Shown here piece by piece: positions 37,349 to 37,618 of a stretch of 64,000 nt of DNA. Source of the stretch: a virus. Taxonomy: Duplodnaviria; Caudoviricetes. The position numbers were made by a program, and so were the translations under genes. Numbering within the stretch: the stretch's first letter is position 1; the number at the start of each line of letters is the position of its first letter. Under the pieces are notes generated by a model that worked only from the letters and a program-made list of their open reading frames with translations, did not search any database and was not told where the DNA came from. Where the stretch lies: IMG/VR virus record IMGVR_UViG_3300017716_001697, positions 300,577-364,576 of that record; one strand, given 5' to 3'.

Positions 37349-37390
37349 TAAGATAAATAATTTATACATTTAGTATTAGAGGCACCCAAA

Positions 37391-37618
37391 ATTAACGCAC
37401 GCGAATTACTTACAGAATTCTATGATCCTGCTGATGATCAACTCGGTAAGGCTGAGCTCGATGATACACGCCGTCCACGATTAACTATGATTCATTTACA
37501 GAAACTTAGGAAGTCTCGCGACGTCGAAAAATACGAAACCGCCCAACATACTAATTTCTTACCAGATATGTATGGTGTATCTGCAGCACCTGCAGATAAC
37601 GGAATGGGCGGTCTATAA
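37391..37618 (+). CDS. Small head-region protein (75 aa) with probable AUU start
   Basis: Not in track. ATT at 37391 lies 8 nt after GAGG; an in-frame stop at 37358 excludes any upstream ATG/GTG/TTG; product (M)NARELLTEFYDPADD...DDTRRPRLTMIHLQKLRK; GATAAATA box at 37352. Confidence 0.7.
   Translation: MNARELLTEFYDPADDQLGKAELDDTRRPRLTMIHLQKLRKSRDVEKYETAQHTNFLPDMYGVSAAPADNGMGGL

Follow-up and report, generated by a model that had tools for sequence, protein, structure and literature searches.

Downstream of the portal gene of an uncultured phage lies a frame of 75 codons that has no ATG, GTG or TTG at its 5' end and in which an ATT stands 8 nt after GAGG. Where does translation of this gene begin, and what connects it with a second gene, on the other strand, whose non-AUG codon lies at the end of an exact copy of the same 15-mer? 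Both features had been pointed out in a preliminary description of this DNA and agree with the sequence, the second codon being ATA. They had been read there as a dedicated class of non-AUG initiation, which keeps the proteins scarce or makes them depend on a phage-altered initiation state or a trans factor.

The window (the whole 64,000-nt stretch analysed) corresponds to positions 300577-364576 of a 364,576-bp IMG/VR virus record with direct terminal repeats (G000). The phage is a jumbo phage carrying T4-type core genes; the window encodes a portal protein (Pfam Portal_T4), a prohead protease, a Gp23-type capsid protein and a gp15-type tail sheath stabiliser. The closest cultured relatives are Pseudomonas phage PA5oct and Agrobacterium phage Atu_ph07 (~45% protein identity), and kinship is at the protein level only, megablast of the region against cultured phages having returned no DNA-level match. 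The members of the clade are freshwater and wastewater jumbo phages. An independent Logan contig of 77x coverage, from the probable source run, was identical to the window over 37200-37700; it has the ATT at 37391, which speaks against a true ATG there. Logan contigs from three further runs span parts of the stretch only. The features discussed below are collected in Table 1.

Table 1. Positions of the genes, leaders and promoter-like element (window coordinates unless marked G000 or L126)
Feature	Position	Strand	Remarks
Portal gene, T4-type (gp20 family), upstream neighbour of gene 1	35636..37348	+	Pfam Portal_T4 E=1e-106, PHROG 213
GATAAATA, probable T4-like late promoter element	37352..37359	+	19 nt before gene 1 GAGG
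Gene 1 leader: AGAGG + 8-nt G-free spacer CACCCAAA	37378..37390	+	kept in relatives
Gene 1 (P0001), ATT start, 75-aa conserved protein	37391..37618	+	PHROG 13986, homolog Met1
Gene 2 (P0002), tail sheath stabiliser/completion protein, 481 aa, ATA start	42835..44280	-	Pfam, PHROG
Gene 2 leader: AGAGG + CACCCAAA, as in gene 1	44281..44293	-	4 nt past upstream gene's TAA
Virion structural gene upstream of gene 2, 406 aa	44298..45518	-	PHROG 11591; stop just before gene 2 leader
Gene 3, outside the window, ATT start, 167 aa	G000:83647-84150 (L126:2148-2651)		leader ataaAGAGGCAttaaaATTaac

Three genes without a canonical start codon

In gene 1, GAGG (37379-37382) is followed by the spacer (37383-37390), the ATT (37391-37393) and, at the end of the frame, TAA (37616-37618). 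The frame is closed upstream by TAA at 37358-37360, it contains no ATG, GTG or TTG before the internal ATG at 37487, and its ATT lies 39 nt past the double stop of the portal gene. A 75-position profile, PHROG 13986, matches residues 10-74, and Met1 (ATG) of the homologs in PA5oct and in Salmonella phage Munch aligns exactly on the ATT. EST35_0150, the homolog in PA5oct, carries the annotation of a structural protein found by ESI-MS/MS. Pfam contained no match for gene 1 and the ESM Atlas feature search gave no usable one. The ESM Atlas entry for gene 1 itself begins at residue 33, read as Met (window 37487-37618), which shows that automatic gene calling has cut the gene to the internal ATG. 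In the gene downstream of gene 1 (338 aa, 37790-38806), the ribosome-binding site, AAGGAGAGATTRGGC ATG TCA CAA CAA, is strongly conserved across relatives with 65-81% N-terminal identity.

The ATA of gene 2 (44280-44278, minus strand) is in frame with, and 16 codons upstream of, an ATG-initiated frame of 465 codons. This frame, too, is closed upstream (TAA, 44304-44302) and has no ATG, GTG or TTG before the internal canonical codon; the TAA of the upstream gene (44300-44298) stands 17 nt before the ATA. The Pfam family T4-gp15_tss (PF16724) matches residues 4-231 with 82.2 bits (cut-off 25, E=4e-23), and PHROG 11196 matches from residue 1 (E=1e-90). In the homologs from PA5oct and Atu_ph07, Met1 falls on the ATA or next to it in the alignment, PA5oct MNYFYDEQLRRYLLQF being aligned on IDFFYDSQHRRYLLQF of the window, and the position of the internal Met of gene 2 is occupied by Leu in both homologs. 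If the gene is called from its first ATG, 16 conserved residues are lost.

The leader shared by these two genes is the 15-mer AGAGGCACCCAAAAT, present at 37378-37392 (+) and 44293-44279 (-). These are exactly two copies, and no further match was found in the window even when up to three mismatches were allowed, which upholds the statement that other genes of the window do not share the leader. The 12-mer GAGGCACCCAAA occurs just at these two sites across the entire genome. The last two bases of each 15-mer copy are the first two of the ATT or ATA, both codons are 8 nt past GAGG and each of them opens a long frame. Among 515 called gene starts, just four pairs have identical bases in the 12 positions before the start, and gene 1/gene 2 is one of them; such sharing amounts to ~3e-5 per pair, or ~1e-4 for any of the three pairs that three non-AUG genes can form. 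Chance is therefore no explanation for the repeat. The usual ribosome-binding word of this genome is AAGGA/AGGAG, and GAGG precedes only 18 of 406 canonical starts. The Shine-Dalgarno sequence of the window leader is the 4-nt GAGG core, with a predicted pairing energy of -5.8 kcal/mol. The initiation regions are predicted to be unstructured, with less folding than in shuffled controls (z +0.5 to +2.1), which would suit a weak codon that has to be as accessible as possible. A scan of IMG/VR with AGAGGCACCCAAAA was uninformative, the more than 118 unrelated single matches being at chance level for a 14-mer in that collection.

Whole-genome gene calling, combined with a scan for near-cognate codons behind Shine-Dalgarno-like words, added one convincing case, gene 3. 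The search of the genome for the leader, which had been proposed as a check, in this way yielded a third gene: its ATT stands behind the near-identical leader AAAGAGGCATTAAA, with GAGG 7 nt away, 18 nt past the upstream stop. The encoded protein is 68% identical over its full length to a PA5oct protein whose TTG start aligns on the ATT. There is no ATG, GTG or TTG from the upstream stop to the conserved N-terminus, which is covered by the family profile; Pfam had no match for this protein. Seven other candidates (G000:235395, 149220, 87631, 241326, 174952, 233339 and 85367) were dropped for an implausible N-terminal extension or a good ATG with its own Shine-Dalgarno sequence (149283).

No Shine-Dalgarno sequence precedes the internal canonical codons of the three genes (ATG 37487 in gene 1, the first such codon in gene 2, that of gene 3), and GAGG is 8, 8 and 7 nt from the respective AUU, AUA and AUU codons. 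Taking these data together, the genes very probably begin at AUU or AUA.

Start codons and leaders in relatives

Gene 1 orthologs were collected from portal-anchored IMG/VR loci (n=74). About 20 of the 74 have ATC or ATT at the codon of residue 1, all of them behind AAGAGG[C/T]A(CCC/CAA/TTT/CCT)AAA or, in more distant relatives, AAAGGAGGTTTAAA or AAAGGAGAATTAAA; the 12 distinct contexts with an AUH codon (AUU, AUA or AUC) all read AAGAGG[C/T]A...AAA or AAAGGAG(G/A)..TAAA. For gene 2, eleven lineages were compared. ATA after GAGG[C/T]ACC[C/T]AAA was found in the window and in L127, L128 and L298, ATC in L130 and L299, GTG in L129, TTG in L297, and ATG in L211, L212 and L296. The gene 2 orthologs of L130 and L299 have their ATC without a Shine-Dalgarno sequence at normal spacing. 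In these two loci, AGGAGG is located ~25-28 nt upstream of the ATC with a small hairpin between them (L130, 2465-2503; stems GCAGT/ACTGC in L130 and GACAG/CTGTC in L299), a layout reminiscent of the split ribosome-binding sites of T4 genes 25 and 38. In relatives of gene 3, ATA, ATT or CTG always stands behind GGAG, AGGAG or GAGG with a 7-8 nt A-rich spacer, and the ATG orthologs have mostly weak sites of the TTGGAC/TAGGAC type.

For the three genes together, 23 of the 24 distinct near-cognate contexts (ATT/ATC/ATA, CTG) from dozens of metagenomic relatives have GAGG/GGAG and an A-rich spacer of 7-8 nt before the start. As in the window, the stretch from the upstream in-frame stop to the conserved N-terminus is free of ATG, GTG and TTG in L127, L128, L298 and L172. 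The third base of the start codon may be T, C or A, with the N-terminal protein sequence preserved; the AUH state is retained in several lineages and replaced by ATG, GTG or TTG in others. The sequences thus show the start positions by homology, the absence of any other start and, in relatives, a conserved link between AUH codons and a Shine-Dalgarno leader.

Of 17 occurrences of GAGG[CT]A[CT]HHAAA in ~750 kb of relatives' loci, 15 precede an AUH start codon, in gene 1 or in gene 2, and ATG follows in no case, so that the leader is indeed followed by non-AUG codons elsewhere; five large relatives (1.56 Mb) contain five copies of the motif, of which one precedes the ATA of gene 2 and none an ATG. 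The notion of a dedicated leader class survives in part: the tie to non-AUG codons is real, but no single fixed sequence is involved, since the spacer varies (CACAAAAA, TATTTAAA, TACCTAAA, GTTTAAA) and the Shine-Dalgarno sequence may be GGAG or AGGAG. In one partial relative (G010:C1:2851-2872), GAGGCACTAAA is followed by ATT TGT AGT, which may mark another AUH gene with a leader of 7-nt spacer.

The mean predicted pairing energy with the anti-Shine-Dalgarno sequence was -6.8 kcal/mol for the 24 near-cognate contexts versus -4.5 for 95 canonical ones (Mann-Whitney p=3e-5, a value not corrected for phylogeny). On a tree of the portal proteins, at least eight changes are required to account for the AUH state of gene 1, five of them on well-supported branches, and a Shine-Dalgarno sequence is present in 17/17 AUH rows compared with 12/42 canonical rows. 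In an independent-pair test on this tree, three to four of five pairs went in the same direction and none in the opposite one, which are too few for significance. Conservation of the leader as such carries no weight, since neighbouring ATG genes have ribosome-binding sites (AAGGAGAGATTRGGC, TTTAGGAGAACTCAAG) that these relatives conserve just as well.

The ATG orthologs of gene 1 are built differently, mostly without a Shine-Dalgarno sequence. In 22 of their 37 distinct contexts (L131-L210), a Shine-Dalgarno sequence is missing and the end of NTAAATA lies 5-6 nt from the ATG, whereas in the AUH contexts of gene 1 NTAAATA stands 14-35 nt upstream. Two ATG orthologs with a long leader have a degraded Shine-Dalgarno sequence, AGAGAAAC, and one (L167) retains an intact GAGGG leader. 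The element GATAAATA occurs 76 times in the genome (27 expected), with 62 copies (82%) intergenic, and is also kept upstream of gene 1 in relatives. It resembles the T4 late promoter TATAAATA, whose counterpart it seems to be, and it is probably the late promoter of the clade. Given this resemblance and the distance between NTAAATA and the ATG, the ATG orthologs of gene 1 are probably leaderless or nearly so. A leaderless ATG is expected to be a weak initiator as well; an alternative state of this kind would support selection for a low dose rather than for a special codon.

Probable initiation at near-cognate codons and competing readings

The reading that we favour, and think likely, is that genes 1, 2 and 3 are translated from near-cognate AUU, AUA and AUU, respectively, and that leader and weak codon form a low-output module. 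The GAGG, the unstructured, G-free spacer of 7-8 nt and AAA at -3 to -1 would position the ribosome. In ordinary 30S initiation the initiator tRNA would then pair imperfectly with the AUH codon, at a rate that is a small fraction of that of AUG. Leader and codon would thus be a conserved module that holds initiation low and sets the dose of the protein relative to its neighbours, and the AUH genes would be sensitive to start-codon proofreading of the IF3 type. The low output and the purpose of the AUH starts are what we infer from this arrangement. Because the Shine-Dalgarno sequence is here a 4-nt core, the statement that a strong one compensates for the codon holds only relative to the ATG orthologs. 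The idea that the proteins are kept scarce would fit published AUH outputs, which were 1-2% of AUG for AUA, AUC and AUU in E. coli (10.1101/063800) and ~10% of AUG for the S. aureus genes cvfC1 (AUU) and ccpN (AUA), both with a conserved extended Shine-Dalgarno sequence (PMC13009471).

Dose tuning alone does not explain why the exact CACCCAAA spacer is found in two unrelated genes and persists in several diverged relatives; it may represent a shared optimum (G-free, no competing NTG) or a specific contact. By its position gene 1 is perhaps the counterpart of T4 gp67, an abundant core protein, and if this positional candidate is right, "scarce" would not suit gene 1.

A specific contact is central to a reading in which ribosomes modified by S21, IF1 or another factor read the leader, including its CACCC, so that AUH codons are used efficiently only in the infected cell, for instance late. 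The genome does encode S21 (G000:118510-118665, 52.7 bits) and IF1 (G000:141891-142073, 58.5 bits), both above the Pfam cut-off; bS21 adjoins the anti-Shine-Dalgarno sequence, exchanges easily and can steer gene-specific expression (PMC9578407), and according to one proposal bS21 from phages gives late phage transcripts an advantage (PMC9723584). Such a mechanism would also agree with the exact 12-mer that two unrelated late genes have in common and that is never followed by ATG in relatives. Yet S21 and IF1 are present clade-wide, in the complete relatives G006, G007 and G008 and the partial G010; G006 uses ATG at all three genes, and the presence of the two factors in relatives with ATG or TTG does not track AUH use. 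The suggested look for phage-encoded initiation factors and ribosomal proteins thus turned up S21 and IF1, but a homolog of IF3 (IF3_C), looked for in the phage genome, is absent, and so is an initiator-like tRNA of fitting anticodon among the 45 phage tRNAs: two CAU, a GAU and a UAU tRNA all lack the hallmarks sought (three G-C pairs closing the anticodon stem, a 1:72 mismatch). A search of the whole genome for a trans-acting RNA complementary to the leader gave only single 9-10-mers (G000:180753, 5265), which is chance level. The varying spacers and the equally conserved ribosome-binding sites of neighbouring ATG genes are further points against this reading, which we judge unlikely. In its narrower form, CACCCAAA together with GAGG would be a recognition element that lets ribosomes remodelled by S21, IF1 or another factor accept AUU, AUA or AUC; this is quite improbable, and if true would define a phage-private class of mRNA, translated only in the infected cell. 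The proposed dependence on a phage-altered initiation state or trans factor is consequently unsupported.

The tRNA genes lie in two regions (G000:3810-56365 and 211746-215395), which contain the 45 tRNAs and a tmRNA (tag ANADTFALVA). One tRNA has a CUA anticodon (amber suppressor-type; G000:33705-33780), and TAG is the stop codon of 62 of 513 roughly called genes. The tRNA-Ile(UAU) call (92 nt, G000:53935-54026) is odd in having a long extra arm and shows no initiator features.

Ribosomes that finish the upstream gene might instead restart at the nearby AUH codon, which would tie the output to the upstream protein at a small, constant ratio. The distances from the upstream stop (39, 17 and 18 nt for genes 1, 2 and 3) are compatible with this, and initiator tRNA and IF2 take part in reinitiation, which IF3 reduces (PMC2268962). 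The leader of gene 1, however, is separated from the portal stop by the promoter-like GATAAATA, conserved in relatives, so that gene 1 is probably also translated de novo. We give reinitiation as the whole explanation little credence, and find it similarly doubtful that the Shine-Dalgarno sequence serves chiefly to retain the ribosome after termination. As coupling needs no near-cognate codon, it complements initiation at weak AUH codons and does not replace it; it may add to the output control of genes 2 and 3, which start 17-18 nt past a stop. Least probable of all is that sequencing or assembly went wrong, that the gene is dying or that translation begins at the internal ATG only. Although gene callers cut gene 1 at the internal ATG, the 77x contig is identical, and numerous independent metagenomes have ATT, ATC or ATA at this codon, their frames being intact and their N-termini conserved. 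No Shine-Dalgarno sequence precedes the internal canonical codons, and the internal Met of gene 2 is Leu in PA5oct and Atu_ph07. An artefact caused by guanine modification was rejected on account of the same contig and the same state in many metagenomes.

Known near-cognate systems and meaning for the clade

Near-cognate AUH starts are already known from infC, pcnB and genes of S. aureus. In E. coli, infC (encoding IF3) and pcnB use AUU (10.1101/063800), and this AUU behind a Shine-Dalgarno sequence limits translation under IF3 discrimination (10.1101/063800; PMC13009471). The phage genes resemble them in having a near-cognate codon behind a Shine-Dalgarno sequence. They differ in that they are phage genes, two of them late structural ones, that all three AUH codons are used across relatives, that no autoregulatory logic is evident and that the phage lacks a gene for IF3. 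With cvfC1, ccpN, infC and citZ of S. aureus they share the joint conservation of codon and upstream motif and the fact that annotation pipelines miss them. The S. aureus motif, in contrast, is an extended start-proximal duplex, compared with the 4-nt core at 8 nt in the phage; moreover, the same 12-15-mer leader serves two unrelated phage genes, and the phage orthologs alternate with a probably leaderless ATG design that has no Shine-Dalgarno sequence.

Belinky, Rogozin and Koonin (2017) found that non-AUG starts go with stronger and better conserved Shine-Dalgarno sequences and AUG with weaker ones (PMC5622118), and the phage genes agree with this rule. Their study covered GUG and UUG, and a change from AUG to AUU was seen once in 61,358 ancestral AUG starts (PMC5622118), whereas here the AUH state changed at least eight times in one gene of one phage clade. 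As in the systems of phage bS21 (PMC9723584) and of the bS21 paralog of Francisella (PMC9578407), the clade encodes an S21 that can bias mRNA choice; a connection of S21 with the AUH leader did not emerge, S21 being present with or without AUH. New in the present case are the set of three AUH genes in one uncultured jumbo-phage clade, the shared leader that was never seen with ATG, and the repeated switching between a design of Shine-Dalgarno sequence plus AUH and one in which ATG abuts the promoter.

For annotation, these results mean that gene finders truncate or drop AUH genes, and the same problem is expected across the whole clade. For the biology of these phages, gene 1, with its two alternating and presumably weak designs, would be a natural, replicated case in which the dose stays constant and the mechanism changes. 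The exact spacer in two unrelated genes of a phage that has its own S21, IF1, 45 tRNAs and tmRNA raises the question whether phage ribosomal proteins alter start-codon selection.
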